Positions 43,328 through 60,216 of a DNA stretch of 64,000 bases are shown one piece after another. Location of the stretch: assembly GCA_028716565.1 (NCBI GenBank), contig JAQUPL010000001.1, positions 409,476 through 473,475 on the forward strand, written 5' to 3'. Origin of the DNA: Candidatus Omnitrophota bacterium (GTDB lineage Bacteria; Omnitrophota; Gorgyraeia; Pluralincolimonadales; Pluralincolimonadaceae). The position numbers were made by a program, and so were the translations under genes. The notes under the pieces were generated by a model that saw nothing but the letters and a program-made list of their open reading frames with translations, searched no databases and was not told the DNA's origin. Position 1 is the first letter of the stretch, and each line of letters opens with the position of its first letter.

Positions 43328-44676
43328 CCGGCTGCGCGCCCGTCTTTATTGGCAAGGAAATATTTTGCGATATGGAGCATCTTATAATCATCATATTTTT
43401 TCGCCGCGACCTGCAAGCCGAAAGGCAATCCGTTCGGGCCCGTAAATGCCGGTATGTTCAAGACAGGGTAACCGAGGAATGTCCAGATCAGGCAGGTATC
43501 CGGCTTTTCCCTCTCGTCGATAAGGGGAGGCTCTCCGGAAGTGGACAGTGTCAACACCGCATCGTATCCCGCCAGTTCCTTCCCTATCCTTGCGCCGATC
43601 CGGACTTGCTCTCCTAACGCATCGGCATATTCGGCGCCTGTGATCCGGTTGCCCCGCTCTATTATCTCATACATCAATTCACTGATAAGCGTGTGCTGTT
43701 TAAACTCATCCTTGAAATAATAGGACAGTGTCTTGTCGTAGATCGTCGAGTGGATGTCATGTATCTTATTAAAATCTGCGGAGGGCTTGATCTTGACAAG
43801 CTCGACCTGCCCCTTCCCCTTCAGGCCGCGGATATACGAATCGAACGCATCCATCGCGTATTTTTCGAACTTATTAAAGACATGTATCCCGCCGGAAATG
43901 AAACCGACTTTGATCTTCCTGGAAAGTCTTATTGGGGAATTCCGGTCAAGGGTCGCGTTGACGAAAGGATAATTGCTCCCCCTCACCCTGATGACGTCAA
44001 AAAGCAGCTTGACGTCATCGACGGTCCTGGCCAGCAATCCGACCGTATCCAATGAATCCGTCGTCTTGAGCATGGCCGTCCTCGGGACCGTCCCGAACGT
44101 CGGCTTAAAACCGTATACCCCGCAATAGCTCGCCGGCCTTATTATCGAACCCGCGGTCTGGGTGCCTAAAGCTAACGGCACCATATACGAAGCGACGGCC
44201 GCAGCCGAACCGCTCGATGAAGTGCCGGGGGAATAACGGGGATCGTGCGGGTTAACCGTCTTATTCTTAGGCAGGTAATGGACTGCGAACTCTGCGCTGA
44301 CGGTCTTGCCCAGGACCAGCCCGTCCTGCATCCGGATAGAATGGACTACCCTTGCGTCGTTGCCGGGCGTAAAACCCTTCCATAAGGGGCTCCCCATAGC
44401 GGTAGGCATATCGCTGGTATTGAATATATCCTTCACTCCTACCGGGACCCCGGCCAATGACCCTAATTCCTTCTTCTTGTCAAGGCGCTTCGCATGCCTT
44501 ATTGCCGATTCCGGGTCTATATATTCCCAGGCCTTGACTACAGGGTCTTTTTCCGAGACCGCTTCCAGACAGTCGCGGCAGGCCTCTTCGACGCTTACTT
44601 TTTTACTCTTGATTTTCTTGATCAGCTCTGTCGCAGAAAGAAGGTTTAATTTCATATTTTTACCTTTTCGTATCAC
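43324..44676 (-). CDS. amidase-signature family enzyme
   Basis: GGSSSGSAAAVAS amidase signature. Confidence 0.7.
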   Translation of the reverse strand: MIRKGKNMKLNLLSATELIKKIKSKKVSVEEACRDCLEAVSEKDPVVKAWEYIDPESAIRHAKRLDKKKELGSLAGVPVGVKDIFNTSDMPTAMGSPLWKGFTPGNDARVVHSIRMQDGLVLGKTVSAEFAVHYLPKNKTVNPHDPRYSPGTSSSGSAAAVASYMVPLALGTQTAGSIIRPASYCGVYGFKPTFGTVPRTAMLKTTDSLDTVGLLARTVDDVKLLFDVIRVRGSNYPFVNATLDRNSPIRLSRKIKVGFISGGIHVFNKFEKYAMDAFDSYIRGLKGKGQVELVKIKPSADFNKIHDIHSTIYDKTLSYYFKDEFKQHTLISELMYEIIERGNRITGAEYADALGEQVRIGARIGKELAGYDAVLTLSTSGEPPLIDEREKPDTCLIWTFLGYPVLNIPAFTGPNGLPFGLQVAAKKYDDYKMLHIAKYFLANKDGRAAG

Positions 44677-45824
44677 GGGAGCAGCTTCGCCTTTTTGTCG
44701 CGCTTATCTTTCAGTATCTTCTCAAACTCCTTTTCGCTGTAACCCGTAATTTTAAGGTAGTAATCGAGCGATTTCGAGGGCCTTTGGGCGTCATGTTTCT
44801 TCGCCAGCTCAAAACCTTCCTCCCGCGTCAATAGCCCGGTGCGGACGTCGATCGAGGCGTGGTCGGTGCCCCTGCCGAATCCCCTCTTGATGAATTTGGA
44901 ATAATCGTGCATCCCTGCCATCCTGCATTCGGCGCTTTTGTATCCCTTGTAAGTCCCCTCGATCTTATCTTCGCGCCAGCCGAAATTGTCGCGGACGAAC
45001 TCTGTCTGTCTTTCGTCGTCCCAGAACATGTAGTCCCCAAGGTAGATACCTACGATGCCCGCCTTCTCGACCTCTTCTTTCGAAGGAAGGACATACCCGA
45101 GGACATCGCTTAAGGATATGTTTTTGTCTACCACCTCTTCCGCGTAGTATCTTGCCGATATCTTGGTGAAATAATCGCGGTCATACGGGATGGGATCGAA
45201 ATACGTAGCGCGGCCGTGATTCTCCCCGCCCGGCTCGCCCCATATCAGCAGCTTTATTTTGTATTTCACCGCTATCTGCAAAGGGAACGCCCCCACGCCG
45301 GCATGGCAATGCCAGCACGTGTCCCCTATAAGCTGCAGGGATTTCTTCGCCAGTTTATTGACCGCCGACCTTTTGGGCGTGAACATGATGTGGTCCACAT
45401 CAAATCTCTCTAGCGCGTTCTCGAGGTTATATTTGCCGGTCTCGCTGTACCAGTTATGGTTGAAGGTGACAGCCAAAGGGTTCAATTTGTATACCTGCGT
45501 CACAACATACAGCTGGAAGGTGCTGTCCTTTCCGCCGCTTATAGGGACGATACAGTCGTAATTGCTCCCGTCCTTTGAACGGTATTTCTCAAGGATCTTC
45601 CTCAGCTTCGCCTCCCTCTCCTTCCAGTTTATGTGTATCTTCTGTTCGGAAGAACGGCAGGGCTGGCAGATACCCATTTCGTCGAATGCCAGGCCTTCGG
45701 CCGTCTCCGGCATGCAGCAGCGGACACAGTATCTTATCTTCCCGTGAAAGAGCGGTTTGCCGTATCCGGCCTTTTTGGCCAACCGTTCGTAACGCGTCTG
45801 CTTAACGCGCTTTTTATCGCCCAT
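44673..45824 (-). CDS. N-acetyl sugar amidotransferase (WbpG/PseA/WbuX family PP-loop ATPase)
   Basis: CxxC zinc ribbon at the N-terminus and CIVPISGGKDST PP-loop. Confidence 0.7.
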   Translation of the reverse strand: MGDKKRVKQTRYERLAKKAGYGKPLFHGKIRYCVRCCMPETAEGLAFDEMGICQPCRSSEQKIHINWKEREAKLRKILEKYRSKDGSNYDCIVPISGGKDSTFQLYVVTQVYKLNPLAVTFNHNWYSETGKYNLENALERFDVDHIMFTPKRSAVNKLAKKSLQLIGDTCWHCHAGVGAFPLQIAVKYKIKLLIWGEPGGENHGRATYFDPIPYDRDYFTKISARYYAEEVVDKNISLSDVLGYVLPSKEEVEKAGIVGIYLGDYMFWDDERQTEFVRDNFGWREDKIEGTYKGYKSAECRMAGMHDYSKFIKRGFGRGTDHASIDVRTGLLTREEGFELAKKHDAQRPSKSLDYYLKITGYSEKEFEKILKDKRDKKAKLLP

Positions 45825-45830
45825 TTCCCG

Positions 45831-46388
45831 TCACCTCGCCTTCTTTCTTCTCATATACTCATCGCGCAATATGCCGTATTCTATGATATCCTGGTAGGCG
45901 CCGTCCTTTAAGAACGCCTGGCGCCTGCGGCCTTCCTTTTTCATCCCCATGTGGGCGGCCAGTCCTTGCATCGCGATATTTTTCTCGTTGGTCCCGCAGT
46001 AGACCCTGTGCAAATTAAGCGCCAGGAAAGCGTGCCGCAATAACAGGCCCGACGCTTCCTTGGCTATTCCCCTGCCCCAATACTTCTTCTCCCCGATGAT
46101 TATGGCAAATTCCCCATTTCTCGCTATCCAGTCGATCCCGTGCAATGCAATATTCCCGATATGCCGGTCGTTCTTTTTGGACACTATCGCGAGCACAAGG
46201 TCAGAGCCGCTGTTATTCACCCTGTCTACGTAACTTTCCGCCTTGGCGGCCGAGTTCGGGAAGCGCCCATGGGCGTTGTTGCGGCATACTTCCCGGTCGT
46301 TAAGCCACTGAGGATAATTGCCTTTAACATCACCCTTCTCAATAGCTCTGAGATAGATCTGTTTTCCTTCCAAAAATACGGATCTCAT
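45831..46388 (-). CDS. GNAT-family N-acetyltransferase
   Basis: RGRGIAKEASGLL acetyl-CoA binding motif; 185 aa. Confidence 0.65.
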   Translation of the reverse strand: MRSVFLEGKQIYLRAIEKGDVKGNYPQWLNDREVCRNNAHGRFPNSAAKAESYVDRVNNSGSDLVLAIVSKKNDRHIGNIALHGIDWIARNGEFAIIIGEKKYWGRGIAKEASGLLLRHAFLALNLHRVYCGTNEKNIAMQGLAAHMGMKKEGRRRQAFLKDGAYQDIIEYGILRDEYMRRKKAR

Positions 46389-47749
46389 GCGCTACTCCTT
46401 CTTTTTAGTTCGGAACGGTTCTCCCAGACTTTTTCGAAGGCTCTCACGACATCATCCAGGTCATTCTTCTTCATCCCGGCATGCATCAGGTCGTTTATAA
46501 AAAGTTCCGACCCGTACATCCGCTCTGCGACAGGACAGGACCCTTTCGAATAATCGGCCTTCCCTTTATAGAACTTCCTGCCAAACGGCAGGCCGGACCT
46601 GCCGTAGGCGATCCTCTTTTGGTACATCGGCTGCATATATAAGGGCCTGACGTATCCGCCCCATATGCGGACGCCAAGGTCTTCGGACTTTTCGGTAGGC
46701 GCAAGCTCGGCGCGGACCGCGTCGAGGAACAAGTCCCGCCCTACGCCTGCGGCCTCTTTATCGAATTTGAACGGTTGTATATAATACGCGTGCTCGCAAT
46801 GCGGCCTCTTGGGCGGGACGACTATCGCCGGTACGGCGCCCAGTTTTGATTCCAGGTACCGGCAATTATTCTGCCGGATCCCCAGCAGGCCCTTAAGCTT
46901 TTTCAACTGGCATATGCTTACCGCCGCTTCAAGCTCGGTCATCCTGAAATTGTAGCCTATCATGTTCACGAGGTTTTTTTGTTTTTTGTCTCCTACGACC
47001 GCTTCGGCGTGGTTACGGATAAGCCGCACCCGGTCGGCCAATTCATCGTTGTCCGTGACTACTATACCGCCTTCCCCACACTGGATATGCTTATGACAAT
47101 TCAAGGAGAATACGCCGATATCGGCCAGGGTCCCTGCGTACTTTCTTTTGTATCTTGCTCCGGGTGCCTGGGCGGCATCCTCTATTACTGCCAGCTTATG
47201 GCGCCGGGCTATCGCATTTATCCTGTCCGCGTCATAGGGTTGGCCGAATATATCGACAACTATTATAGCCCTGGTCCTGGACGTTATGCGCTCTTCCACC
47301 GATACCGGGTCGAGGCAAAAGTAATCTTCCTCTATATCGGCAAAGACCGGGACGCCCTGGAAAATAACGGCCGCCGTGGCCGAGGCTGACATGGTATAGG
47401 GTGAAACTATTACCTCGTCCCCAAGGCTTATCCCCGCTGCGCCTGCCGCGCAATAAAGTCCCGACGTACAGGAATTGACCGCAACAGCGTGCTTCACGCC
47501 GAAGTATTTTGCCCATTCACCTTCAAGCCGGCGCACCCCGGGACCGCCGAAAAAATACTTCTCATCCCATGATCCCAGGAATTCCGAAAGTACCCCGGAA
47601 TCTATGACTCCGCAAAGCGCCTTCTTCTCTTCCTTTCCTACTGTCCTATAAAAAGGAAAAAGCCTCTTGCGGACCGGCTTTCCGCCGTAAATCGCCAATC
47701 TGCTCATCTTCGCCCCTTCCTGGTTAATTCCGCCTTCGCGATCCCGCAA
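46385..47749 (-). CDS. DegT/DnrJ/EryC1/StrS-family PLP-dependent sugar aminotransferase
   Basis: DAAQAPGA...GVFSLNCHKHIQCGEGG with the PLP lysine. Probable true start MSRLAIYGG at about 47710. Confidence 0.8.
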   Translation of the reverse strand: MRDREGGINQEGAKMSRLAIYGGKPVRKRLFPFYRTVGKEEKKALCGVIDSGVLSEFLGSWDEKYFFGGPGVRRLEGEWAKYFGVKHAVAVNSCTSGLYCAAGAAGISLGDEVIVSPYTMSASATAAVIFQGVPVFADIEEDYFCLDPVSVEERITSRTRAIIVVDIFGQPYDADRINAIARRHKLAVIEDAAQAPGARYKRKYAGTLADIGVFSLNCHKHIQCGEGGIVVTDNDELADRVRLIRNHAEAVVGDKKQKNLVNMIGYNFRMTELEAAVSICQLKKLKGLLGIRQNNCRYLESKLGAVPAIVVPPKRPHCEHAYYIQPFKFDKEAAGVGRDLFLDAVRAELAPTEKSEDLGVRIWGGYVRPLYMQPMYQKRIAYGRSGLPFGRKFYKGKADYSKGSCPVAERMYGSELFINDLMHAGMKKNDLDDVVRAFEKVWENRSELKRRSSA

Positions 47750-48837
47750 AATGTCTTGAAAAAATTCTCCCGCGGCATCTCATAGCGTTTCTGGGCAAGC
47801 CGGGCCTTCCTGACGAATTTTTCGTCGGTCAACAGGCTGCGAACCAGGCCCGGGAACTGGGAATACGCGTTCGCCGAAGGGCAGTATCCTGCCATCTTCA
47901 AAAAAGGTATGCCCGGGATATCAACGCCCGGCAGGAAAGATGAGACAAGCCTTCCTCTCATCATCGCCTCGAACAGGGGCGTCGTATTCATGCCCCAGAC
48001 ATAGTCTGAGCTTGCTATCAGTTCGCTGGCATTATATTTTTTCTTCACCATCCTGACGTTGATATTCCCGGCCAGCTTCTCTTTGGCTATACGGCCGTAA
48101 CGCCTGTAAATATCCTCTTTCTCGCCGTTAGGGTGGAACTTTACGATCAGGTTCAGGCTCTTGCCGTATCCGGCGGAAACCTTTGACAGCTCGCCCGCTA
48201 CCCGTTCAAAGATCTTAAATTGGTTGTATTCTACCGGCGGTTCGGTCGGCTCGGCAAGATATAATATTGTCTTTGTGCCCGGATCCAGCGACAACTGCCT
48301 TAGCATACGCTTTCTAATATTGCCAAGGCCTCTCAAAGGGGCTGTTGCCGATGAAAAATACGGGTTCCCTGTGCGGACTATCCTTGCCCGATTGCCGAAA
48401 TATTTGCGGCATAAACCTTCCGCTATGCCGTCGACCACGCAGATCCAGTCGGGGACGCAGGTCTCGCCGGTCTTAGAATAAATGAACCTCTTTTCGAAAT
48501 TTGTCCACCAATCTATGAAAGATACGACCGGAACCCCGCAGGCCTTTCCGGCCTTTATATAATCCCTCTCGAGGTCATCGTTTATGCTCGTGCCGGTCAC
48601 GATCAGGTCCGGCCTTTCGGCCCGGACAAAATCACATATGTACGGATAACCGCTCTGCGCCTGCCTGCGCACGTCTGGTCCGGTGCCCGCTTCTACGGCC
48701 AGGGGAAATCCCGGCCCCCGGGCCGCTACGCAGACATTTGCGCCGAGCTTTTTCAACGGCCGGTACAAGAGCAGCACCGCCTGCGATGCGCCGGGGTCGC
48801 GGATAGCCATTATTATCTTTTTCCCATTTAAATCCAT
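47704..48837 (-). CDS. TagF/Glyphos_transf-like GT-B protein (ILYLAEPT and KFHP motifs)
   Basis: TILYLAEPTEPP resembles the TagF ILYAPTWR block; LIVKFHPNGEK and IASSDYVWGMNTT resemble the HP and DYSS blocks. Confidence 0.4.
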   Translation of the reverse strand: MDLNGKKIIMAIRDPGASQAVLLLYRPLKKLGANVCVAARGPGFPLAVEAGTGPDVRRQAQSGYPYICDFVRAERPDLIVTGTSINDDLERDYIKAGKACGVPVVSFIDWWTNFEKRFIYSKTGETCVPDWICVVDGIAEGLCRKYFGNRARIVRTGNPYFSSATAPLRGLGNIRKRMLRQLSLDPGTKTILYLAEPTEPPVEYNQFKIFERVAGELSKVSAGYGKSLNLIVKFHPNGEKEDIYRRYGRIAKEKLAGNINVRMVKKKYNASELIASSDYVWGMNTTPLFEAMMRGRLVSSFLPGVDIPGIPFLKMAGYCPSANAYSQFPGLVRSLLTDEKFVRKARLAQKRYEMPRENFFKTFCGIAKAELTRKGRR

Positions 48838-48844
48838 ATGTTTC

Positions 48845-49807
48845 TTACGGCCTTCTTGCCTTGCGCCAGATCTCCGACGCCAGCCTGATTATTTCCATTT
48901 CATTCTTCAAGGGCCCGTGGTCTATAGACTGCGCGCGGAAGGCCTTCACGATACCGGAGACGGAATTTTTCATTGCCTTCGAGATCGTTGAAGGATAACG
49001 ACGGGCAGGTGCCAACTCCTGAAAATCCGGATACACACATGATCTCCTTACCTTAAAGATATCGACCTCGCCCTGATCGCCTATTCTCACACGCGCCTTT
49101 TTGTAAAACAGGTCCAGCTCAAGATAAGGGTAGTCTTTCCCGTCTACCCAGCTGAAGAATACCGGTTTCCCGTCCTTCGTTTTTAAAAGGATTGAAGCGC
49201 CAAAATCGTCTTTGTAAAGCTTGACTATTGACGCGATCAGCGAAAAATCCGGCTTGTGCCCGAACAATAAAAGTAGGTCGACAAGGTGAACCGCATTTTG
49301 CAGGAAACCGCCGTAATAGACCGCCCGGCCGGCTTGGAAACCTCCGAACTCACCCCCGATTATGCGTCCTTTAACCCTGTTTATCGATTCATCCCAGCGA
49401 CGGAGGTAATTTACGGCGATATAAGCGCCTTTCTTTTTAGCTAAATCGGCGAGTTCCGCGGTCTGGGAGATCTTGTAAGTAAGCGGTTTTTCCGCCAGGA
49501 TATACCTGACCCCCGAATTCTCCAGGATCCATTTTATTATATTATAGTGGGCCGATGTCGTGGCGCAGACGCTGACGACGTCAAGGCGCTCCTTCCTGAA
49601 CATTTCCCTGTAATCCCTGTATGGGATAACCCCCGGATAAACGCGGGCCATTTCACGCGCCCGGTCGAATATGATATCGCTGCAGGAGACCAGCCTCGCA
49701 GACGGCTCATTAAAGTACGATTTGGCGTGCGTATTATAATGCGGCCCTTTTGGGTTGTCCCATTTAAACGCTATATTCCCGCAACCAATTATCCCTGCTC
49801 TGACCAT
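48845..49807 (-). CDS. Gfo/Idh/MocA-family NAD(P)-dependent oxidoreductase (WbpB-like sugar dehydrogenase)
   Basis: AGIIGCGNIAFKW Rossmann motif and the EKP motif ILAEKPLTY. Confidence 0.7.
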   Translation of the reverse strand: MVRAGIIGCGNIAFKWDNPKGPHYNTHAKSYFNEPSARLVSCSDIIFDRAREMARVYPGVIPYRDYREMFRKERLDVVSVCATTSAHYNIIKWILENSGVRYILAEKPLTYKISQTAELADLAKKKGAYIAVNYLRRWDESINRVKGRIIGGEFGGFQAGRAVYYGGFLQNAVHLVDLLLLFGHKPDFSLIASIVKLYKDDFGASILLKTKDGKPVFFSWVDGKDYPYLELDLFYKKARVRIGDQGEVDIFKVRRSCVYPDFQELAPARRYPSTISKAMKNSVSGIVKAFRAQSIDHGPLKNEMEIIRLASEIWRKARRP

Positions 49808-49808
49808 G

Positions 49809-50588
49809 TTATTTTATACCTGTCCTGTTTATGGAACGGCCTTTTAAAGGCTCCAATATCCCGGGCTCATCATCAAGCAACTTGATGATGTCGCCGGTAT
49901 CGAATAATTTGTTCACCGGGTAAAGCCGCCCGTATATCCTCCTCATGACCTCAAGGTCCGCCTCGGTATCGAGGGCAAGATGGATATCCGGCCGGTTAAA
50001 TTTTGCCGGGGCCGGATACCGGTACGACGAAAATAACTCCGGGTGGCTTTTAATGAAATAATTTGTGTGCTCGAAATTATTGCTGTCCGAATTGTAAGGG
50101 GCGCGGCACGCCGTCTCATGCGCCCTGGATAACGCGGAAAATCCGGCCACCTGCATATCTATGCCTACGGGATAAGAGTCCTCCAGGCAATTCGATACCA
50201 GGTCATACGCATTCTTGAAGAAGAAATCGACGCCTTCATCTATTAACGAAGGAGAGATGCATGAGCAATCGCCGGTGACCAAAACAAGCGCCTTCGCGGC
50301 TGCGACCGTCCCCGCTCCCACTACCCTTCCCAGGACATCCGTTTCGCTGCCCCGGTAGCATCCGGCCCCGAACCTTTTCGCGATCGGCAGCAGCCGGTCG
50401 TCGCTGTCTTTTTCGGTCGTCGCTACCACCACCCCTTTGACATTTTTACACGCCGAAAGCCTTTCTATGACCGCCCCCAAAGCGGGAAGCCCCGGGTACA
50501 GGTCAAGCGCCATCTTTCCGGGAAGGCGCGTAGACCCCATCCTGGCCTCTATCACGGCGTATACCTCTTTCGCGGTTTTCATGGTCAA
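49809..50588 (-). CDS. CTP_transf_3 cytidylyltransferase (SpsF/PseF-like CMP-nonulosonate synthetase)
   Basis: AVIEARMGSTRLPGKM nucleotide-binding motif. Confidence 0.65.
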   Translation of the reverse strand: MTMKTAKEVYAVIEARMGSTRLPGKMALDLYPGLPALGAVIERLSACKNVKGVVVATTEKDSDDRLLPIAKRFGAGCYRGSETDVLGRVVGAGTVAAAKALVLVTGDCSCISPSLIDEGVDFFFKNAYDLVSNCLEDSYPVGIDMQVAGFSALSRAHETACRAPYNSDSNNFEHTNYFIKSHPELFSSYRYPAPAKFNRPDIHLALDTEADLEVMRRIYGRLYPVNKLFDTGDIIKLLDDEPGILEPLKGRSINRTGIK

Positions 50589-51502
50589 ATAAACCTGTCG
50601 CCTTTTGCGAAATCACGGGCCGGCCTTCCGCCCTCAGCTGCCACATCGCTTATCCATATAGCCCTATCCCCGGCAGACACCAAAAACGAGCGTTTATTGC
50701 CCTTCTTTCGCACCGACAGTATTTCACCGGCATCTCCGGCCGCCCTCCGGGAGCCGCCGATCTTCGCGCTCCAAACAAAATACTTTACGCCCTTGCTATA
50801 TGTGAACGCGCCGGGATAAGGACGGGTCAGGGCCCGTATCCAGTTGTAAACATCGATAGCCGGGGCGTTCCAGTTGATGCGCCCGTCTTCCGGCCGCCGC
50901 TTCGGCCAAAACTTACGGTTCCCGGAAACATTCTTTATCCTGCGCGCGCGCCCCGCCTCGATCTCAGGCAGGTGCCTGCTGATCAAACGGCACACCGCCG
51001 ACGCGGCCTTGTCGTATACCGTAGCGCAAGTGTCCTTAATACTTATCGGAAAACTCATTTGGGCAATTATATCCCCGGTGTCCGCCTGAGGGTCGCAGTA
51101 GAACATGGTAACACCGGTCTTCTTCTCTCCGTTTATTATCGCCCAGTTCACGGGCGCGCGGCCCCTGTATTTTGGCAGCAATGAAGAATGGAAACCTATC
51201 GCGCCTTTGCCGGGGATCTTCAATATCTCCGCGCAGACCAATCTTTGCCAGCCGCATATCACTATCAATTCCGGTCCCATCTTTTTAATGCGCGAGATAT
51301 TCGCAGGATCGTTGAGGTCCTTTACCCTGTACAGCGGTATGCCGTGTTTCCTGGCGACCGCAGAGAAATCCGAGAACCCCGAGGTCCTGCCGGCATATTT
51401 CCGGGAGAGGGTAAATATGGCCGCAACATCGCCGCCGTCTTTTATCACCTGCCTCAGGCATTTCATTCCAATCTCGACGCAACCTATAAAAACTATCCTC
51501 AT
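50585..51502 (-). CDS. formyltransferase (Fmt/ArnA N-domain family; sugar N-formyltransferase-like)
   Basis: HSSLLPKYRGRAPVNWAI (HxSLLPxxxG) and MFYCDPQADTGDII motifs. Confidence 0.75.
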   Translation of the reverse strand: MRIVFIGCVEIGMKCLRQVIKDGGDVAAIFTLSRKYAGRTSGFSDFSAVARKHGIPLYRVKDLNDPANISRIKKMGPELIVICGWQRLVCAEILKIPGKGAIGFHSSLLPKYRGRAPVNWAIINGEKKTGVTMFYCDPQADTGDIIAQMSFPISIKDTCATVYDKAASAVCRLISRHLPEIEAGRARRIKNVSGNRKFWPKRRPEDGRINWNAPAIDVYNWIRALTRPYPGAFTYSKGVKYFVWSAKIGGSRRAAGDAGEILSVRKKGNKRSFLVSAGDRAIWISDVAAEGGRPARDFAKGDRFI

Positions 51503-51504
51503 CC

Positions 51505-52179
51505 CTATTTTCGCACTTCCCTTATAAGCCTGAACGGCTCGGCATATTTAATGCCCGCCGAGATCCCCCAGTAATTCGCGTAAGCCTTTATGGCTTCGGG
51601 GCTCCTGGGATGCGGGTACGGCCTGGCTTCGCTTTCGTACCGCGACATCGCCGCCGTCTTCACCCCGATCTCGCCGGCGATATCGAGAAATATATTAGGT
51701 ATGAACAGGTCCTCTTTTTCCATGGAGTTCCATTCGGTAGTGGAAGCCACATTATACGTGAAAAGCCTTTTTATCTTCTGCCCGGGGATGGGCCTAGCGG
51801 CGGTTATCGACGCCTCGTATACTATCCGGTGGTCCTTGTTCAGGTCCGCGGCGTGGTGGGTATACAGGCTGTCCGCATCCAGCCGCGATATATATTTTTC
51901 TATGCACCCGATGATATCTGAAAGCGCGATGGTATCGAACTTCTGGTTCGGGAAATCCTCGAAAAAGACTTTCTTGGTTCCGACCTTCTTATTCGCCTCA
52001 AGGGCGTTCTTCCTGAGCGCCGCAGCCTGCCGCGGCGAATACCTGCCCTTTGCGCCGTCCGTCAGGATCACGACGTATGAATCGATGCCGCATTTCTTTT
52101 GCTTGGCGATCAGGCCTCCGCATCCCAATATCTCGTCATCGGGGTGCGCCGCGATTATCAAGTTTTTCATCGGCTCCAC
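51505..52179 (-). CDS. PIG-L/LmbE-family N-deacetylase
   Basis: IIAAHPDDEILGCGG motif. Confidence 0.7.
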   Translation of the reverse strand: MEPMKNLIIAAHPDDEILGCGGLIAKQKKCGIDSYVVILTDGAKGRYSPRQAAALRKNALEANKKVGTKKVFFEDFPNQKFDTIALSDIIGCIEKYISRLDADSLYTHHAADLNKDHRIVYEASITAARPIPGQKIKRLFTYNVASTTEWNSMEKEDLFIPNIFLDIAGEIGVKTAAMSRYESEARPYPHPRSPEAIKAYANYWGISAGIKYAEPFRLIREVRK

Positions 52180-53009
52180 CTGTGTAATATGGTCCTGGTT
52201 TTTTCGATCACGGAAAACCCGTTCCTGATGTAAAAATTCATAGCCGCAATATTCCCGATCTGCGTTTCAGTCACCATTTCAAAACGCCTAAAATGCCTGA
52301 TAACATGCCGTATCAACGCGGTGCCCACGCCTGCGCCCGCGAACTTTGCCGCTACCGCCACATAGGCCAAAAAGACCTTTTTCTTCCGCGCATCCTTATG
52401 GCACAGGATTACTCCCGCAGCTTCACCGCCGATTCGCGCGGCGAAGAGAGACCGCGTTGCGGAAGGTTTGAAATTTTTTAAATAACTGATCCAAAGCAGG
52501 TCTGCTTTTTCTTTCCGTATATGCCGATCGGTATGGAAACGGTCGCATGTGAATACCGAGCCCAGTCTGGAATACGGCAGGCCCTCATTCGTTTCCAGCT
52601 TTTCTATCTTACAACCAAGCGCTCCTCTCTTGGCGTGCGCAGCCATAGACCTCCCGGCGCAGCATTCCCTATCCTGATATTTAAGGGTTACTTCGGTATT
52701 AATGTATTTAAAACCGGCAGAATACAAAAAATCTAATACCTTTATTCCGGTCGCCGTGTCGATCTTGGCGGTAATAAATGTATCCTTAAAGGATCTCCTG
52801 AACTTTTCGTCAAGCTCGGAGGACGGCGTCAATTCCAGCCTGCCGGCATCCAGCAGAAAAGAAGGCCTTCCGAAAAAACCGGTGTCCCACGACAAAAATT
52901 TCAGGCGGATCTTCGCGCCGGCCGCCTTAAGCGTGATGTCTTTCATATATTTCATCCACTGCCTCCCTGATAGAGTCTGTCCTCGGGAAAATGCCCGGGT
53001 CCACGGCAA
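52167..53009 (-). CDS. GNAT-family N-acetyltransferase (PseH/WecD-like position after the PseG-like gene)
   Basis: C-terminal VAVAAKFAGAGVGTALI acetyl-CoA motif. Likely internal start MKYMKDI at about 52955. Confidence 0.5.
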   Translation of the reverse strand: MPWTRAFSRGQTLSGRQWMKYMKDITLKAAGAKIRLKFLSWDTGFFGRPSFLLDAGRLELTPSSELDEKFRRSFKDTFITAKIDTATGIKVLDFLYSAGFKYINTEVTLKYQDRECCAGRSMAAHAKRGALGCKIEKLETNEGLPYSRLGSVFTCDRFHTDRHIRKEKADLLWISYLKNFKPSATRSLFAARIGGEAAGVILCHKDARKKKVFLAYVAVAAKFAGAGVGTALIRHVIRHFRRFEMVTETQIGNIAAMNFYIRNGFSVIEKTRTILHRWSR

Positions 53010-53931
53010 CGCTGCGGCGCAGCGCCTCTTTTACCATTACGGGATCGATCGTCCGGAATCCCATATAACGGGCGTATCTTTTCTTATCAAAATATTCGCA
53101 CCTCGTGACTTGATGTTCATACACCGCCGTCAGTAAAGCCGGCGTACGCGTACAGACCAGTTCATACGCGGTAAGCCCCCCCGCGGAGATAGCAAGGTCG
53201 CAATTCATATATTCCTGGAACATGCTCGCAATATTCTGTTTTAATTCATACTTTAGCGCCAGGTCACCGAGCCTGCGCTTCAGCGTTTCCCTGTATCTAT
53301 AACCCGAGCCCAGGATAATATGCAATTCCAGCGAGGTATCGAGGCCTGCCAGCGCCTCTACCGCCTTTTTTGTGAGGTCAAATTCATCGGCTCCGCCTAG
53401 CGTTATCAATACAGTCCTGACCGTCTCTTTATCCTTCCTTTCGCGTATACGATCGAATTGAAAGTCGGCCGGCAGGATCACATACTGCGGCCCAAGGAGG
53501 AAACGCGCCCTGCCTGCCGCGCGCCCTCTAAAGGTCTCCTCAGCCGATACATCCCAGTTCACGACCAGGTCGAAATCGTCCGGCACGGCGCCGTCAAAGC
53601 ACACACACGCCTTTATCGCTTCAGGCGTTATCCCGCGGTAATCAGCCAGCGGCCTTTCAGTGATCTCAAAGAAGGCCGCGTCGATACCGTTCTTCTTTAT
53701 ATACCTGTTTATGTTGTCCACCTCTTCTTCGATGCCGCTGTCCGGGTCGATCACGCTCAGGTTCTTTAACGCGTGTTTTTCTGCCAGCGCTAGGCCCAGG
53801 TCATACCCCCTGATGATAAAATGCGCTCTCCAGCCCTCCTTCTCAAAATACCTGGACAGGTGTATCAGGGAGACCAGGTCACCCGTGCCGATACAGGTTT
53901 TAGCGTCTGCCCTGAATACTATGTTCTTCAT
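52927..53931 (-). CDS. PseG-like UDP-sugar hydrolase (pseudaminic acid biosynthesis-associated, MurG-like fold)
   Basis: MKNIVFRADAKTCIGTGDLVSLIHL N-terminus and C-terminal LITLGGAD...CDLAISAGGLTAYEL resemble PseG. Confidence 0.5.
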   Translation of the reverse strand: MKNIVFRADAKTCIGTGDLVSLIHLSRYFEKEGWRAHFIIRGYDLGLALAEKHALKNLSVIDPDSGIEEEVDNINRYIKKNGIDAAFFEITERPLADYRGITPEAIKACVCFDGAVPDDFDLVVNWDVSAEETFRGRAAGRARFLLGPQYVILPADFQFDRIRERKDKETVRTVLITLGGADEFDLTKKAVEALAGLDTSLELHIILGSGYRYRETLKRRLGDLALKYELKQNIASMFQEYMNCDLAISAGGLTAYELVCTRTPALLTAVYEHQVTRCEYFDKKRYARYMGFRTIDPVMVKEALRRSVAVDPGIFPRTDSIREAVDEIYERHHA

Positions 53932-55001
53932 CTCAAAATGTCCGCCCAGGTAAGAGGTTCGCCTGACGGAATATCCCTTTTAGCGGTGACCCTGTGATCC
54001 TCGAATAAGCTCATATATTCCGGCGCAAGCCCATGCGCCTTTTTGCCGGGCCTGAGGACGGCGATGTGCGAGGGCTTTATTGCCTTCCCTTTCTTAATGT
54101 CCCTGCGCGCAAAAAGGCTCATGAAGGCAAAATCCCTCAGGTAACGTTCATGGGGAAATGTCACCTTGGCCGTCGTGCCGTACAAAAGTTTATCGATAGT
54201 GAAATTTTTACGCTTATGCGCGGTTTCTGCCGACCTGACATCCTTTACCATCTTTTCAATCTCATCCGGTTCCAACGCAAAGAAATGGTCAGGACCCGCC
54301 ATTTTTCTGTCCAGGGTAATGTGTTTTTCTATGATAGAAGCGCCGAGATAGACCGCCTGTACCGCGGCGTCGGAGACCTCTGCGGTGTGGTCGGAGAATC
54401 CGACCGCGATGCCCGAAAAAGCCAGCTTCAAGGTCTCTATCACCCCAAGGTTGCAGTCCTTGAGCGGCGTCGGATACTTCAACGAGCAATGTAAGAGCGC
54501 TATTTTATCATGATAACGTTTAACGGTAAAAACTGCCTTTTCAACCTCGCCCAGGCTCGCTCCGCCCGTGGAGATGATTACCGGAAGCCCGGTCTGCGCG
54601 CACTGTTGGAGCAACGGCAGGTTTGTAATCGAATACGAAGCGATCTTGATCCGTTTCAGTCCCTTCTCAACCATTGTCCTGAGCCCGCGCGCGTCGAAAA
54701 CAGAGGCGAGGAAATCTATCTTCTTCCCTGCGCAATGGCGCATGAGCCGCGTAATCCACGCTTCGGGCATTTCAAACCGCTTTGCCGCATCGAAGATATC
54801 GTAAGAATATGCCCCTTTGGCGTCTTTCCAGTCCAGTTTGCCCGCCGTCTCCGGATAAAGATATTTCGCTTTGAAATGCTGGAACTTCGCGGCATTACAG
54901 CCCGCGGCTGCGGCGGCGTCGATCATCTCCAGGCAGTTATCGAGAGAGCCGTTATGGTTGATGCCTATTTCCGCTATTACATAGACCGGCCTGTCAGGCA
55001 C
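53928..55001 (-). CDS. NeuB/PseI-family nonulosonic acid synthase with C-terminal SAF domain
   Basis: VIAEIGINHNGSLDNCLEMIDAAAAAGCNAAKFQ TIM-barrel motif and a C-terminal SAF-like region. Confidence 0.8.
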   Translation of the reverse strand: MPDRPVYVIAEIGINHNGSLDNCLEMIDAAAAAGCNAAKFQHFKAKYLYPETAGKLDWKDAKGAYSYDIFDAAKRFEMPEAWITRLMRHCAGKKIDFLASVFDARGLRTMVEKGLKRIKIASYSITNLPLLQQCAQTGLPVIISTGGASLGEVEKAVFTVKRYHDKIALLHCSLKYPTPLKDCNLGVIETLKLAFSGIAVGFSDHTAEVSDAAVQAVYLGASIIEKHITLDRKMAGPDHFFALEPDEIEKMVKDVRSAETAHKRKNFTIDKLLYGTTAKVTFPHERYLRDFAFMSLFARRDIKKGKAIKPSHIAVLRPGKKAHGLAPEYMSLFEDHRVTAKRDIPSGEPLTWADILR

Positions 55002-56019
55002 TCCTTAACCTTCCCACCATATTGATATTCCTTGCCAGGTGGTTCTTGTAGATCAGTTCCGGTGTAAGAAAATCCAGGGCATCGGCATTATCGCCGAAAT
55101 AGGGGTCCTTGTAGCTAAGGTAATTCTTGATCACCCCGATCTCCGTGATTATCGTTTCGTGCTCCAGGACCTCAAACCCCGCTTTTTCAAAAAGCATGGA
55201 AAGGGTCTCCCTGCTAAAGAACTGGATATGAGAATGCCCCGCAAAAACGCCTGCTTTTTCATGCATGATCCGGTTGACAAGCGCATCCATGCAAGGGACT
55301 GAAATAAAAATTATGCCTTTTGGTTTTAATATCTTCTTTACCTCCAGCACTGTCTCTAAGGGCTCCCTCAAGTGCTCAAGGGTGTTCAATAAAAAGATGC
55401 AATCAAACCTACGCTTGATCTCTTGCTTAAGCGGGAAAAAATCGCCTATATAATCTATTTCTTTTTCCGTTAAAAATTTATGGCAGCGCCGGTTAGGTTC
55501 GACGCCAAAAGCGTAGTATCCCCTCTTTTTTGCTTCGCCAAGTAATGTGCCCGGCCCGCAGCCCACATCGCAAATACCTATATCACTTTTTTCCTTACTG
55601 TCGAAATAAAACTCGGCGATATCCAGGCTGTACCTTGCCTCCAGGGCCTGCATCTTTATCTGCTCCGCGCTTTCCAAAACAGCCTCCCAGGAATCCTCGG
55701 CGCTCCAGAGTTTCTTGTATTCATCATTATTCAGGATCCGGTTTACATATACCAACCCGCAGCTCTTGCACTTTACATGAGGGAACCCATACTTTACAAA
55801 AACCGCATCGTGGTCTCCTGACTTGCACAACGGACAGGCTCTCTTCTCGGCGAACTTATCATAAATAAGCCCGGTACCGGGATCGGTCCATTGGTCATCA
55901 TGGGTCTCCCTGTAAGCGAGGTGGTCATCGCGCTTGGTCAACAGGTTGAACTTGCGAGTGCCATAGACTATACTGGCATCAAACTCATTCCTTCTTTTTA
56001 CTCGTTCCTCAAAATTCAT
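54994..56019 (-). CDS. SAM-dependent methyltransferase with N-terminal Cys4 zinc ribbon
   Basis: CPLCKS...CKSCG zinc ribbon and ICDVGCGPGTLL motif I. Same architecture as 37086..38078. Confidence 0.6.
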   Translation of the reverse strand: MNFEERVKRRNEFDASIVYGTRKFNLLTKRDDHLAYRETHDDQWTDPGTGLIYDKFAEKRACPLCKSGDHDAVFVKYGFPHVKCKSCGLVYVNRILNNDEYKKLWSAEDSWEAVLESAEQIKMQALEARYSLDIAEFYFDSKEKSDIGICDVGCGPGTLLGEAKKRGYYAFGVEPNRRCHKFLTEKEIDYIGDFFPLKQEIKRRFDCIFLLNTLEHLREPLETVLEVKKILKPKGIIFISVPCMDALVNRIMHEKAGVFAGHSHIQFFSRETLSMLFEKAGFEVLEHETIITEIGVIKNYLSYKDPYFGDNADALDFLTPELIYKNHLARNINMVGRLRSA

Positions 56020-56041
56020 TTTTCACTCCCGTGTTTGCATG

Positions 56042-57154
56042 TCAGCGTAAGGGGTATCGCAATTGCCACTTCCCGCCCTCTTTCTTCCAGATCTCGGGAT
56101 TCCTGTGCTTATCCACTATCTCATGGAAATCTTTTTCTGTAAGATCCAGGTATTCCAGCATATCCTTGAAATAATACGCCGGGAATTCATCGTCGTATTT
56201 TTTTGCCAATTCCAGGCCCTGCTCCCTGGTGAGCTGCTTATTCTGGATCATCCTGCTGGCATCCCTCACCGCCCTGCCGAAACCGAACTTTATGAACTGC
56301 ATGTAATAGTAAAGGTTGTCGGACTTGTCATCGAGGCTGTCGAAATCGGTGTAGGTCCCTTCCGACCTTCCGGTGGGGCATGTCTTGAAGTCGAATTTTT
56401 CCTTTATGTACAGGAAGTTCTCGTAACTGCTCCATTTGAAGAAATAACCGAAGTAAAGCGCCTTTACTCCCACCTTCCTGACTTCCTCCAGGCCGGGATA
56501 GAGGTAAGGATTGAGGTCCTTCGCCGTGATTTTGTCGTCTACCCAGTTCCTGGGATCGTCGCCTATCTGGTGCTCTATGACCTCGGTAAAGTCCCGCAGT
56601 TTCTTCGACTCCTCTTTCAGGACCTTCCCCCCGTATTCGCTCTCCCCGTGTTCGGCGTAAAAGACCAGCGGCACCTTGTAATTCACCGCGGCCTGGACGG
56701 GTATCGTATTGACGCCGGCGTCCCATGCTACCTTATGGTTGCCGCGTTCTATAAAGAACCTGCGCGACAGCCGACGGTGTATGCGCTGGTTGGGGCGGAA
56801 GAAAAGATGGTCGAAACCAAGTTGGACCATCATCTCGCGGTTGTAGTTTCCCACATCAGTAGGCAGCTGCGGGGAGAATGTCGTCATGAGCGGGTTCATC
56901 CCGAACTCATATTTCAACTTGTATGCCACGGCGCTGCTGTCCTTTCCGCCGCTCCACGGTACGATACAGTCCCATGACCCGTTTTCGGACCGATATTGCC
57001 CCAGGAGGTCGAGGAATTCCTTTTTTCTGGCCTGCCAATCTATGCCTTCCCATTTATTCTCGGCATTCCTGCACGCGTTGCAAATACCTTCCTTGTCAAA
57101 AGATATCCTCGGCCTGGTGGAAGGCATGAGGCACCGTTTACAATAAATGACCAT
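56042..57154 (-). CDS. N-acetyl sugar amidotransferase (WbpG/WbuX family), second copy
   Basis: CKRC...CNAC zinc ribbon and CIVPWSGGKDSS PP-loop. Confidence 0.7.
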   Translation of the reverse strand: MVIYCKRCLMPSTRPRISFDKEGICNACRNAENKWEGIDWQARKKEFLDLLGQYRSENGSWDCIVPWSGGKDSSAVAYKLKYEFGMNPLMTTFSPQLPTDVGNYNREMMVQLGFDHLFFRPNQRIHRRLSRRFFIERGNHKVAWDAGVNTIPVQAAVNYKVPLVFYAEHGESEYGGKVLKEESKKLRDFTEVIEHQIGDDPRNWVDDKITAKDLNPYLYPGLEEVRKVGVKALYFGYFFKWSSYENFLYIKEKFDFKTCPTGRSEGTYTDFDSLDDKSDNLYYYMQFIKFGFGRAVRDASRMIQNKQLTREQGLELAKKYDDEFPAYYFKDMLEYLDLTEKDFHEIVDKHRNPEIWKKEGGKWQLRYPLR

Positions 57155-57171
57155 TTTAAATCCTCTCCCGT

Positions 57172-57945
57172 TTATGTCCTGACATCGATACCCGAGTCCT
57201 TCAGGAAATTTTTCGCGCTCTTTATGCTCGTTTCCGTAAAATGGTATATATTCGTGGTGCAGACAGCCGACGCGTGGCCGTCCTTAAAGCCGTCCACAAA
57301 ATCCTGCCATTTCCCCGCGCCTCCGCATACGAGGACCGGTATCCCTACCTCATCGGCGACCATCCTGTTAAGCCCGTTATCGTATCCTTCCAAAGAACCG
57401 TCCTTATCTATGGAAGATATAAATATCTCTCCCGCGCCGAGGCCTTCGGCCCTTTTTGCCCATTCCGCCGGGTCCAGCCCGGATTTCTTCCTGCCAAAAT
57501 CCGTGAAAACTTCGTATTTACCCCGTTCGTCTTTCTTCGCGTCGATGGAGAGGACGACGCATTGCGAGCCGTACAGCTTTGCAGCCTCGCTGATGAACTC
57601 CGGCCGTTCCACCGCCGCAGTATTGATGACCACTTTATCCGCACCCAAACCAAGCAGCGTCTTAAAGTCCTCAATGCACCTTACCCCGCCTCCGGCCGCA
57701 AGAGGGACAAAGCATTTTTCGGCGAAGCGGCCCACGACATCATAAAAATTCTTCCTCTCTCCGGTGCCTGGACGGGTCACGTCCAGGACGACGATCTCAT
57801 CGACCGACCAGGAATCTACGAAATTCAGGGTATAACGGTAATCCGGGCAGAAATCTTTAGTCCGGAAAAGGACCCCGTTATTGAACGTCAGGACGGTTAT
57901 CAGCCTGTTCTTAAGCATGCCGGGCCCCGGCCAAAAAATTCTCAA
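57172..57945 (-). CDS. HisF-like imidazole glycerol phosphate synthase cyclase-subunit homolog (WbuZ/HisF2-like)
   Basis: (beta/alpha)8 HisF motifs VPLAAGGGVR, GADKVVINTAAV and VLVCGGAG. Probable start MLKNRLI at about 57918. Confidence 0.75.
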   Translation of the reverse strand: MRIFWPGPGMLKNRLITVLTFNNGVLFRTKDFCPDYRYTLNFVDSWSVDEIVVLDVTRPGTGERKNFYDVVGRFAEKCFVPLAAGGGVRCIEDFKTLLGLGADKVVINTAAVERPEFISEAAKLYGSQCVVLSIDAKKDERGKYEVFTDFGRKKSGLDPAEWAKRAEGLGAGEIFISSIDKDGSLEGYDNGLNRMVADEVGIPVLVCGGAGKWQDFVDGFKDGHASAVCTTNIYHFTETSIKSAKNFLKDSGIDVRT

Positions 57946-60213: not shown

Positions 60214-60216
60214 AGT

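Follow-up and report, generated by a model that had tools for sequence, protein, structure and literature searches.

The question raised by this stretch of DNA, a 64-kb piece of a Candidatus Omnitrophota metagenome-assembled genome (MAG; contig JAQUPL010000001.1) that is called the window throughout, is which sugar a long run of its minus-strand genes produces, by what route, and where the set of genes responsible begins and ends. What the region encodes is the synthesis of a nine-carbon surface sugar akin to sialic acids, a nonulosonic acid (NulO), in which a formyl group probably replaces an acetyl group. An earlier note on the same DNA had placed ten adjacent genes in one module that was thought to match the established pseudaminic acid (Pse) pathway; synteny splits these genes into a core that is shared across phyla and continues upstream, and an add-on that was seen only in Omnitrophota. 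The explanation that we favour, and which as a whole has about an even chance of being right, is that of an Sps-like NulO cassette in which the N-acetyl group of N-acetylglucosamine (GlcNAc) is exchanged for a formyl group by a PIG-L-family deacetylase and an Fmt-like formyltransferase with a G-x-H motif, a second amine is introduced by a radical S-adenosylmethionine (SAM) enzyme together with a DegT-family aminotransferase (DegT2), and the Omnitrophota add-on lies downstream.

The ten genes are real: they form contiguous open reading frames (ORFs) on the minus strand from 45831 to 55001, several neighbours overlap by 4 nt at start and stop, and public gene calls on the same DNA agree with them. 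The start that had been given to the module, 46385, leaves the last of them (45831-46388) just outside. Gene families were assigned with the curated equivalog models of NCBIfam and their cut-offs, together with Pfam and sequence matches to the PDB, and nine of the ten family labels proposed previously hold, the exception being a TagF-like assignment for a protein here called X377, which has no Pfam match and is an epimerase-like GT-B protein.

Extent and type of the module

The core genes that fall among the ten encode, in order, a NeuB/SpsE-like NulO synthase (53928-55001; Pfam NeuB 4e-74 and SAF 9e-11), an SpsG/PseG-like GT-B protein presumed to be a nucleotide-sugar hydrolase (52927-53931; weak Pfam match to Glyco_tran_28_C), a WecD/SpsD-like GNAT with an extra N-terminal domain that is presumed to acylate the introduced amine (52167-52955; Pfam Acetyltransf_1 6e-13), a PIG-L/LmbE-family de-N-acetylase (51505-52170; Pfam PIG-L 3e-23) and an Fmt/ArnA-N-like formyltransferase of the G-x-H variant (50585-51502; Pfam Formyl_trans_N 8e-31 and Formyl_trans_C 2e-21). 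The same order, at 39-62% identity, was found in a gammaproteobacterial MAG (L005), a Sulfurimonas MAG (L091), a contig that is likely from Omnitrophota (L088) and a 4.6-Mb genome (L090/L092), and all homologs that are 50-60% identical to the Fmt-like protein are encoded in loci of this order. In all these relatives the block extends upstream as it does in the window, with a cytidylyltransferase, a radical-SAM/SPASM protein, DegT2, a UDP-glucose dehydrogenase (UGDH)-like protein and AsnB. The corresponding genes of the window encode a BtrN-like twitch/SPASM radical-SAM enzyme at the head of the cassette (62676-63542; Pfam Radical_SAM and SPASM), the PseC/ArnB-like aminotransferase DegT2 (61544-62683), a UGDH-like protein without the catalytic Cys (60217-61542; Pfam UDPG_MGDP_dh_C, with a weak match to the N-terminal domain) and an AsnB-type glutamine amidotransferase with the N-terminus MCGIAG (58525-60213; Pfam Asn_synthase and GATase_7). 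The cytidylyltransferase forms the C-terminal, SpsF-like part of a protein of 866 aa whose gene lies immediately past the end of the window, where the DNA was read in locus L085 (window coordinate = 73543 - locus position), which is identical to window 53001-64000 at 10,989 of 11,000 nt.

The module boundaries of the earlier note are wrong, as the genes from NeuB to Fmt (50585-55001) are the 3′ half of a cross-phylum cassette, of which the 5′ half consists of 58525-63542 and the cytidylyltransferase domain past the window end. The coherence of this cassette was further evident from a scan of metagenomes in which the radical-SAM protein served as anchor and which returned 80 loci. Among the loci with enough DNA downstream, the radical-SAM gene is followed by DegT2 in 53 of 53, by the UGDH-like gene in 36 of 44 and by AsnB in 33 of 35, while NeuB (16 of 28) and the SpsG-like gene (16 of 27) were also recovered downstream, both of the latter counts being limited by the 10-kb flank. 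In the 4.6-Mb genome eleven cassette genes, none of them encoding a short-chain dehydrogenase/reductase (SDR), are bordered at one end by a flagellin gene and a gene for a 2344-aa tetratricopeptide repeat (TPR) protein and at the other end by motB/motA. The whole cassette of that genome (L092 1-9260) constitutes a flagellin glycosylation island, in which the TPR-rich protein is a candidate glycosyltransferase.

No gene examined reaches the curated cut-offs for PseB, PseC, PseH, PseG, PseI and PseF, or for LegB, LegC and LegI of the legionaminic acid (Leg) pathway, and the match to established Pse enzymes could not be upheld; the assignment to NulO synthesis itself stands, with a NeuB-family synthase nearest to SpsE, a PseG/SpsG-like protein, GNATs, DegT proteins and a CTP_transf_3 protein. 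The synthase scores 292 bits on NeuB_NnaB (TIGR03569, cut-off 399.65) and 224 bits on PseI (TIGR03586, cut-off 340.25), and its closest PDB match is SpsE of B. subtilis (1VLI, 271 bits), followed by NmNeuB (142 bits) and CjPseI (112 bits); orthologs of 56-62% identity are present in L005, L088, L090 and L091. Typing of the synthase as Pse, Leg or Neu by NCBIfam was abandoned, all scores being under the cut-offs, which leaves only ‘closest to SpsE’. The SpsG/PseG-like protein, encoded by a gene that invariably comes after NeuB in the loci compared, scores 109 bits on the PseG model (TIGR03590, cut-off 153.55), and a PDB search with it gave no PseG structure. Its N-terminal FRADA..IGxGD motif is kept in six orthologs, and Asp18 of IGxGD, likewise in five orthologs, takes the place of the His in the IGxGH of C. 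jejuni PseG, His17, the catalytic base of that enzyme. Judged from this motif, the protein may be a transferase, or a hydrolase that uses another base.

The remaining enzymes follow the same pattern. The GNAT at 52167-52955 gives a weak WecD match (46.7 bits, residues 36-272), its orthologs in L005 and L091 are 39-41% identical, and its position in L088 and L092 is taken by a short Formyl_trans_N protein; both GNATs of the region score 21.8 bits on the PseH model (TIGR03585, cut-off 93.1). On the PseC model (TIGR03588, cut-off 423.5) DegT2 reaches 367 bits, close yet under the cut-off, and the aminotransferase of the add-on, DegT1, 211 bits; on LegC (TIGR04181, cut-off 420) they score 238 and 182 bits, respectively. 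The label SpsF/PseF-like, given previously to the protein encoded at 49809-50582, is apt in its first part (PDB 6OEW, 114 bits) and not in its second, as there is neither a PseF (TIGR03584, cut-off 205.7) nor a NeuA match. A 244-aa cytidylyltransferase encoded upstream of the window scores 139 bits on the PseF model.

In B. subtilis, CMP-legionaminic acid is made from UDP-linked precursors by the aminotransferase SpsC, the acetyltransferase SpsD, SpsG, SpsE and SpsF, together with the unlinked dehydratase SpsM (Dubois et al. 2020, PMC7439481). The enzyme types found here match that set, which likewise has a DegT protein, a large GNAT, a PseG-like GT-B protein (SpsG), an SpsE-type synthase of the NeuB family and a cytidylyltransferase of the SpsF and not the NeuA type, with the dehydratase outside the locus; the likeness is one of enzyme type, sequence comparison having been made with SpsE only. 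The B. subtilis pathway differs in having no PIG-L, Fmt, radical-SAM, UGDH-like or AsnB genes, and in its SDR dehydratase SpsM, a counterpart of which was found neither in the window nor in the 10 kb upstream of it. As SpsE is the closest solved synthase and the enzyme classes match the sps set, ‘Sps-type NulO module’ is the most precise label that can be defended for the synthase-containing genes.

Upstream of the window, L085 1-10004 carries a second gene set of NulO-like kind, which encodes a NeuC-like Epimerase_2 protein (only the 3′ end of its gene is readable), a second PIG-L protein, a second Gfo protein, a methyltransferase, a third DegT protein (40% identical to DegT1), a NeuA/PseF-like cytidylyltransferase, a Maf/MptE-like protein and a B12 radical-SAM enzyme, in addition to the 866-aa protein with its SpsF-like domain.

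The add-on, seen only in Omnitrophota, follows directly on Fmt and encodes the SpsF-like cytidylyltransferase (49809-50582; Pfam CTP_transf_3 7e-15), a divergent Gfo/Idh/MocA oxidoreductase (48845-49807; Pfam GFO_IDH_MocA 3e-16, N-terminal domain only), X377, a rare UDP-GlcNAc 2-epimerase-like protein (47704-48837), the long DegT-family aminotransferase DegT1 (46385-47707; Pfam DegT 2e-84) and an Acetyltransf_3 GNAT of RimL/PseH-like fold that is presumed to acylate the DegT1 product (45831-46388; Pfam 2e-23). It is absent from L005, L090 and L091 and present in L088, where the SpsF-like protein and Gfo have orthologs of 60% and 46% identity, DegT1 a counterpart (71-72% identical there and in L089), and where the GNAT is replaced by a 237-aa formyltransferase of the N-x-H type. 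In the complete Omnitrophota genome CP070807.1 (L089) the X377-DegT-GNAT trio occurs alone with no NeuB nearby, and the pair of cytidylyltransferase and radical-SAM genes lies elsewhere in that genome without the rest of the cassette. A MamI-like magnetosome protein is encoded a few kb from the trio (L089 2936-3112), and this relative may be magnetotactic.

For Gfo, which is too divergent for assignment, the best NCBIfam model is UDP-GlcNAc 3-dehydrogenase (61 bits, cut-off 450) and the best PDB match DgpA (42 bits), WbpB/WlbA not being matched in the PDB. Only 11 homologs of X377 were detected, nearly all of them in Omnitrophota; its AlphaFold model (mean predicted local distance difference test score, pLDDT, 85) has a GT-B fold, the top Foldseek matches are UDP-GlcNAc 2-epimerases of the MnaA/WecB/NeuC type (template modelling score, TM, about 0.6), and the best PDB match of its profile is the 2-epimerase CapG (E 1e-3), via the TGNP and HP motifs. 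Its likeness to the NeuC-type hydrolysing 2-epimerase of the Leg pathway (LegG) is remote. A TagF-like identity (PF04464, Glyphos_transf) was rejected, as Pfam gave no match, only one of the 11 homologs carries a precomputed PF04464 match and the structural neighbours are 2-epimerases. DegT1 matches 8GYH (226 bits), for which no literature was found, the 8-amino-3,8-dideoxyoctulosonate (Kdo8N) transaminase KdnA (172 bits) and PseC (113 bits). The WbpB/WbpE/WbpD/WbpI route to a 2,3-diamino sugar was considered for Gfo-X377-DegT1-GNAT; the classes fit, but with no WbpB/WlbA match and WbpE only mid-ranking for DegT1 it is kept only as a possibility. The add-on would either add a further amino or acylamino group or make a second amino sugar.

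These observations bear on whether the ten genes may after all form one canonical Pse- or Leg-type pathway, in which DegT1 would act as PseC/LegC on a UDP-4-keto-6-deoxy-HexNAc supplied by an unlinked SDR, while the oxidoreductase, the GT-B protein and the second GNAT would tailor the same NulO. The ten genes are contiguous and translationally coupled, their full order is kept in L088, and the dehydratase gene spsM is likewise unlinked from the sps genes of B. subtilis. In Leg clusters the oxidoreductase PtmF beside the nucleotidyltransferase PtmE is a standard arrangement (PMC4481668), paralleled in the window by Gfo beside the SpsF-like nucleotidyltransferase; Gfo, which had been regarded as an unusual extra, is for this reason less odd than it looked, and the arrangement fits the one-pathway reading also. 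Against this, DegT1 scores far too low for PseC or LegC, and among characterised proteins it comes nearest to the Kdo8N transaminase; the PseC/ArnB-like enzyme, and the likely aminotransferase of the NulO pathway, is DegT2, which lies upstream and is conserved with NeuB across phyla. Every relative outside Omnitrophota lacks the add-on, and its X377-DegT-GNAT trio occurs without NeuB nearby. We therefore regard a single ten-gene pathway as unlikely.

The PIG-L/Fmt pair

The PIG-L and Fmt genes directly follow NeuB-SpsG-GNAT in the window, and the same arrangement is seen in L005, L088, L090, L091 and the haloarchaeal Natrinema locus L021. The PIG-L protein has an intact AHPDDE motif, its PDB relatives being TT1542 and diacetylchitobiose deacetylase. 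The Fmt-like protein scores 244 bits on PRK06988 (cut-off 316), and its best solved relative is ArnA (172 bits), in alignment with which Gly103 replaces the catalytic Asn102 while His105 and Asp141 are kept (Gly103-Phe-His105...Asp141). A true methionyl-tRNA formyltransferase was rejected, given 161 bits on the fmt model (cut-off 201.5), the absent catalytic Asn and the position of the gene in a glycan operon.

A profile scan for the Fmt-like protein, with one genome per GTDB species, yielded at least 80 loci from many phyla, which were then searched by tblastn with the window proteins. Among the matches listed, a PIG-L gene directly adjoins the Fmt homolog in 45 of 80 loci, NeuB was nearby in only 7 loci, and most of the loci without the pair are ArnA-like, with DegT, Fmt and SDR genes. 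All 45 PIG-L-linked homologs have G-x-H (36 scored by pattern and nine by eye), whereas all 28 SDR-linked homologs have N-x-H; the pair adjoins a PseC/ArnB-like DegT gene in most loci, and the order of the two genes within the pair differs between loci. The adjacency and the strict split between G-x-H and N-x-H establish PIG-L/Fmt as a distinct, widespread two-gene device which is not restricted to NulO clusters. The Gly-for-Asn signature of the PIG-L-linked formyltransferases appears to be undescribed.

The N5 nitrogen of a NulO comes from the N-acetyl group of GlcNAc. A 5-N-formyl group consequently requires deacetylation and then formylation of that nitrogen, and an acetyl-to-formyl swap, as had been suggested on the basis of the two extra enzymes, is the simplest reading of the tightly linked and conserved pair, from which we infer it. 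It fits chemistry that is already in print. The CMP-NulOs of Ca. Kuenenia stuttgartiensis bear a formyl group and a free amine, one of each, and its cluster holds a deacetylase and a formyltransferase (SugarBase preprint, bioRxiv 10.64898/2026.04.20.719630); since both groups are found on the CMP-NulOs, editing precedes transfer. Besides these two enzymes, likened to the window pair by description and not by sequence, the Kuenenia cluster shares with the locus two legF-like cytidylyltransferases; it differs in its legG-type epimerase and in the order legB-legF-legC, with a legB dehydratase homolog, where the window has cytidylyltransferase, radical-SAM enzyme and DegT. In Halorubrum sp. PV6 the N-glycan is capped by 5-N-formyl-legionaminic acid, and the paper, which mentions no deacetylase, predicts a formyltransferase inside the leg cluster (PMC6137143). 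The related Natrinema locus has, beside NeuB, both a G-x-H Fmt and a PIG-L gene, along with legC, legB and legF homologs, although this haloarchaeal type of cluster has canonical LegB, LegC, LegG, LegF (NeuA-type) and NeuD, and its proteins are only 36-40% identical to those of the window. A NulO cluster with deacetylase and formyltransferase is thus explicit in the literature for Kuenenia and implicit for Halorubrum.

The Kuenenia sugars, with their one free amine and one formyl group, are also an argument for a different view of the pair, namely that there is no stable swap at one nitrogen and that the final sugar keeps a free amine. Either N5 would be freed by PIG-L and the formyl group placed by Fmt on the new N7, with a zwitterionic NulO like that of Kuenenia as the outcome, or a transient formylation would drive an unfavourable transamination, with PIG-L removing the formyl group afterwards, as ArnA and ArnD do in the 4-amino-4-deoxyarabinose (Ara4N) pathway. 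In the Arn pathway formylation is later followed by deformylation, and among solved structures ArnA comes closest to the Fmt-like protein; the proximity of a PseC/ArnB-like DegT and the variable gene order inside the pair also suit this view. The analogy has limits, however. Formyltransferase and ArnB/PseC-like aminotransferase are paired in both systems, acting on a nucleotide amino sugar, but Asn102 of ArnA is Gly here, the partner is a PIG-L protein and not a CE4 deformylase, and a decarboxylase is neither fused to the Fmt-like protein nor encoded next to it. G-x-H Fmt and PIG-L also occur in the haloarchaeal cluster type, which matches a glycan that keeps 5-N-formyl together with 7-N-acetyl, a combination for which one nitrogen must be both deacetylated and formylated. 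For the second amine, moreover, the cassette already has an acyltransferase of its own, a short formyltransferase in some loci and a GNAT in others, and tight adjacency of the pair in 45 of the loci listed is most simply explained by consecutive steps. A free amine in the final sugar is on balance improbable.

In L088 both GNAT positions (among 8679-9329, 15059-15772 and 18947-20845) are occupied by short proteins with a formyltransferase domain, and a second pair of Fmt (N-x-H) and PIG-L genes follows downstream. These positions would accordingly be ones for interchangeable N-acyl transferases, and the identity of the N-acyl group seems to be swapped freely among relatives.

A radical-SAM enzyme proposed in place of a dehydratase

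The cassette includes no SDR 4,6-dehydratase. That no PseB-like enzyme could be assigned within the ten genes, as pointed out earlier, proved to be true of the entire window and of the 10 kb upstream, where no SDR of PseB, PglF or LegB grade is encoded. On the PseB model (TIGR03589, cut-off 407.75) the best SDRs of the window score 37 and 33 bits, with none in the 10 kb upstream either, and on the LegB model (TIGR04180, cut-off 475) the best is the SDR at 3949-4914 with 182 bits. The SDRs encoded at 32308-33225 and 26469-27401, which had been named as possible sources of the missing activity, were dismissed as PseB or LegB at 96-115 bits on LegB and at most 37 bits on PseB. In nine of 18 long metagenomic loci, SDR-like genes are missing from the 10 kb on either side, and in only one does such a gene lie inside the body of the cassette.

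What the cassette does have at its head is a 288-aa radical-SAM protein in which the CX3CX2C motif (Cys21/25/28) and Cys205, Cys223, Cys266 and Cys269 are invariant. Its best PDB sequence match is BtrN (E 9e-6, identity about 19%), with the core and auxiliary-cluster Cys regions aligned; the AlphaFold model (pLDDT 90) matches SPASM/twitch enzymes, BtrN being among the top structural matches and that of highest identity. A CX3CX2C motif, one auxiliary four-Cys cluster, small size and a DegT partner, as in twitch radical-SAM dehydrogenases of the BtrN type, are all present. BtrN oxidizes an alcohol to a ketone, which is then aminated by a DegT-family aminotransferase, and with BtrS it creates the 1,3-diamine of butirosin/2-deoxystreptamine, in a pathway that also includes the PIG-L-family deacetylase BtrD. 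In the cassette the DegT2 gene is always directly 3′ of the radical-SAM gene, and its product is PseC/ArnB-like, ArnB (372 bits) being its best NCBIfam family. By analogy, this invariable pairing of a small twitch enzyme with a DegT protein suggests the logic of BtrN and its aminotransferase, a ketone and then an amine; BtrN nevertheless differs in its cyclitol substrate, which is not a nucleotide sugar, and in its low identity, and the chemistry of an epimerase or of a diol dehydratase (BlsE, AprD4) is also possible. A search of the accessible literature found no paper tying radical-SAM enzymes to NulO synthesis, and a cross-phylum cassette without an SDR dehydratase and with a BtrN-like enzyme in its place appears to be undescribed.

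Two further cassette proteins are shared by the relatives. In the UGDH-like protein GGEK aligns with GGSC of the UGDH 3VTF, which puts a Lys at the catalytic Cys, and none of five orthologs has a Cys there; the GxGxxG Rossmann motif is kept in the protein and its orthologs, but the GGxC cysteine that typifies the UDP-glucose/GDP-mannose dehydrogenase family is lacking. The Cys-less partner appears to be undescribed as well. AsnB, the gene of which always follows, scores 389 bits on asn_synth_AEB (cut-off 267) and keeps its N-terminal Cys.

Under the explanation that we favour, the substrates, the order of the steps and the product of which are proposed from these families and their synteny, co-occurrence and motif changes, the radical-SAM enzyme, and not an SDR 4,6-dehydratase, would generate a keto group on a GlcNAc-derived nucleotide sugar, DegT2 would convert it into an amine, and the GNAT would acylate that amine. 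PIG-L would then remove the original 2-N-acetyl group and the Fmt-like enzyme would formylate the freed amine, the position of which becomes N5 of the NulO. The SpsG-like protein would release the nucleotide, NeuB would condense the sugar with phosphoenolpyruvate, and an SpsF-like enzyme would form the CMP-sugar, while a remaining N-acetyl group may be turned into an (N-methyl)acetamidino group by the WbuX/HisH/HisF trio and the methyltransferase described below.

Lack of a dehydratase could alternatively mean that amination takes place after the nine-carbon sugar has been built. NeuB would then make a Neu/Kdn-type or mono-amino NulO that is activated by the cytidylyltransferase, and radical-SAM enzyme and DegT2, and/or Gfo and DegT1, would oxidize and transaminate a hydroxyl group of the CMP-NulO in the manner of KdnB/KdnA, with no 2,4-diamino-6-deoxyhexose being formed. 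The cytidylyltransferase gene is directly 5′ of the radical-SAM gene, the two occur as a pair without the rest of the cassette in CP070807.1, and KdnA, which acts on the free ulosonic acid, is the second-best PDB match of DegT1. On the other hand, the best named families of DegT2, ArnB and PseC, act on UDP-4-keto sugars, the PseG-like nucleotide-sugar hydrolase and the GNAT of WecD-like type are easiest to place at the hexose stage, and gene order is weak evidence for reaction order. We consider such late amination very unlikely.

Several points weigh against the Sps-like cassette with its acetyl-to-formyl exchange as we propose it. The modelled fold of the radical-SAM protein also fits peptide-modifying SPASM enzymes, epimerases and diol dehydratases, with BlsE, DesII and EpeE among the structural matches and dehydrogenation only one option, and the gene for a 4,6-dehydratase could lie at another place in the genome, like spsM of B. 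subtilis. Formyl transfer is not guaranteed for an Fmt-like protein that lacks the Asn catalytic in ArnA, Fmt and GART. The NeuA/PseF-like cytidylyltransferase and the Maf-like protein upstream make it uncertain which enzyme activates the NulO, the proposal gives no role to the Cys-less UGDH-like protein or to AsnB, and Leg, Pse or other stereochemistry cannot be read from sequence.

The surrounding operon and the surface glycan

The cassette is part of one very long surface-glycan operon, judged from the ORFs of the window, with a minus-strand gene run from about 63.5 kb down to 12.5 kb and an estimated size of roughly 50-70 kb. Window proteins are also present in the MAG GCA_028714115.1 and related Logan assemblies, and their close homologs carry the names Candidatus Omnitrophota or Omnitrophica. 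Between AsnB and NeuB lie a HisH-like, HisF/WbuZ-like and WbuX trio of the acetamidino-forming kind (56042-58528), in which WbuX (56042-57154) scores 340 bits (cut-off 203), HisH 226 bits, and the third partner 237 bits on WbuZ and 190 bits on AglZ/HisF2, and then a SAM methyltransferase directly upstream of NeuB (54994-56019; Pfam Methyltransf_23 4e-25), which has a 75% identical counterpart in L088. In C. jejuni, ptmG and ptmH make (N-methyl)acetimidoyl Leg (bioRxiv 10.64898/2026.04.20.719630), and a WbuX-family amidotransferase with a methyltransferase is what the window has directly upstream of NeuB; HisH/HisF-like subunits, however, accompany WbuX here, and the core enzymes are unmatched at curated cut-offs. 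A second WbuX-family N-acetyl-sugar amidotransferase (44673-45824; 346 bits, cut-off 203), 33% identical to the first, is encoded directly after the last GNAT and is followed by an amidase-family gene (43324-44655). With two WbuX copies flanking the module, the glycan may carry two acetamidino groups.

The rest of the window consists of glycan machinery, including many glycosyltransferases, a WecA-like initiating transferase, a Wzy_C protein, an ATP-binding cassette (ABC) exporter, two ArnT-like GT-C proteins and several SDRs. The initiating transferase (2156-3946) is a WecA-like Glycos_transf_4 protein fused to CoA_binding_3, a domain more usual in Bac_transf enzymes of the PglC/WbaP type. 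Genes for an HpcH/HpaI-type pyruvate aldolase and a KdsB-subfamily cytidylyltransferase (308 bits, cut-off 255) adjoin each other at 38089-39626, accompanied by a hexapeptide acetyltransferase (36472-37089) and the SDR at 32308-33225. This set may provide a route in which an aldolase forms a 2-keto-3-deoxy sugar acid that is then activated with CMP; it recurs at 43-59% identity in the gammaproteobacterial locus L005 (17394-20686), which also has the NeuB block, and in L148. The KdsB-subfamily cytidylyltransferase (38089-38874) was rejected as the CMP-NulO synthetase, as it passes the KdsB cut-off, travels with the HpcH aldolase and more likely belongs to a separate ulosonic-acid route. Four B12-binding radical-SAM enzymes are encoded at 34156-35649, 22441-23913, 21045-22436 and 9755-11260, with a fifth just upstream of the window, and could, if they are C-methylases, give rise to sugars with branches or longer chains; a recent report describes a CMP-activated ulosonic acid of Magnetospirillum in which the carbon backbone is elongated.

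That the cassette is a widespread SDR-free, radical-SAM-started route to amino-NulOs is a suggestion which we advance tentatively, being rather doubtful of it in this general form. If the radical-SAM enzyme only oxidizes or dehydrates a vicinal position, and the terminal carbon is the target of the UGDH-like protein and AsnB, one would expect neither Pse nor Leg but a new class of NulO, for example a sugar with a terminal amide or without the 9-deoxy character, and with N5-formyl in addition. The G-x-H Fmt/PIG-L pair would then be a general device for 2-formamido sugars. The carriers of the cassette encountered here are uncultured lineages and a Sulfurimonas, by lineage likely anaerobes or microaerophiles.

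NulOs cap flagella, S-layers and polysaccharides, and set surface charge as well as phage and host recognition; both charge and recognition change where acetyl gives way to formyl or to a free amine. Homology rules based on Pse and Leg of Campylobacter miss a cassette that is present in hundreds of environmental genomes (Omnitrophota, Nitrospirota, Campylobacterota), in one of them as a flagellin glycosylation island. Confirmation of any one of its features, whether PIG-L/Fmt as an N-acetyl-to-N-formyl editor, a radical-SAM enzyme and aminotransferase replacing the 4,6-dehydratase, or a Cys-less UGDH with AsnB, would allow the surface-glycan loci of uncultured bacteria to be annotated better.

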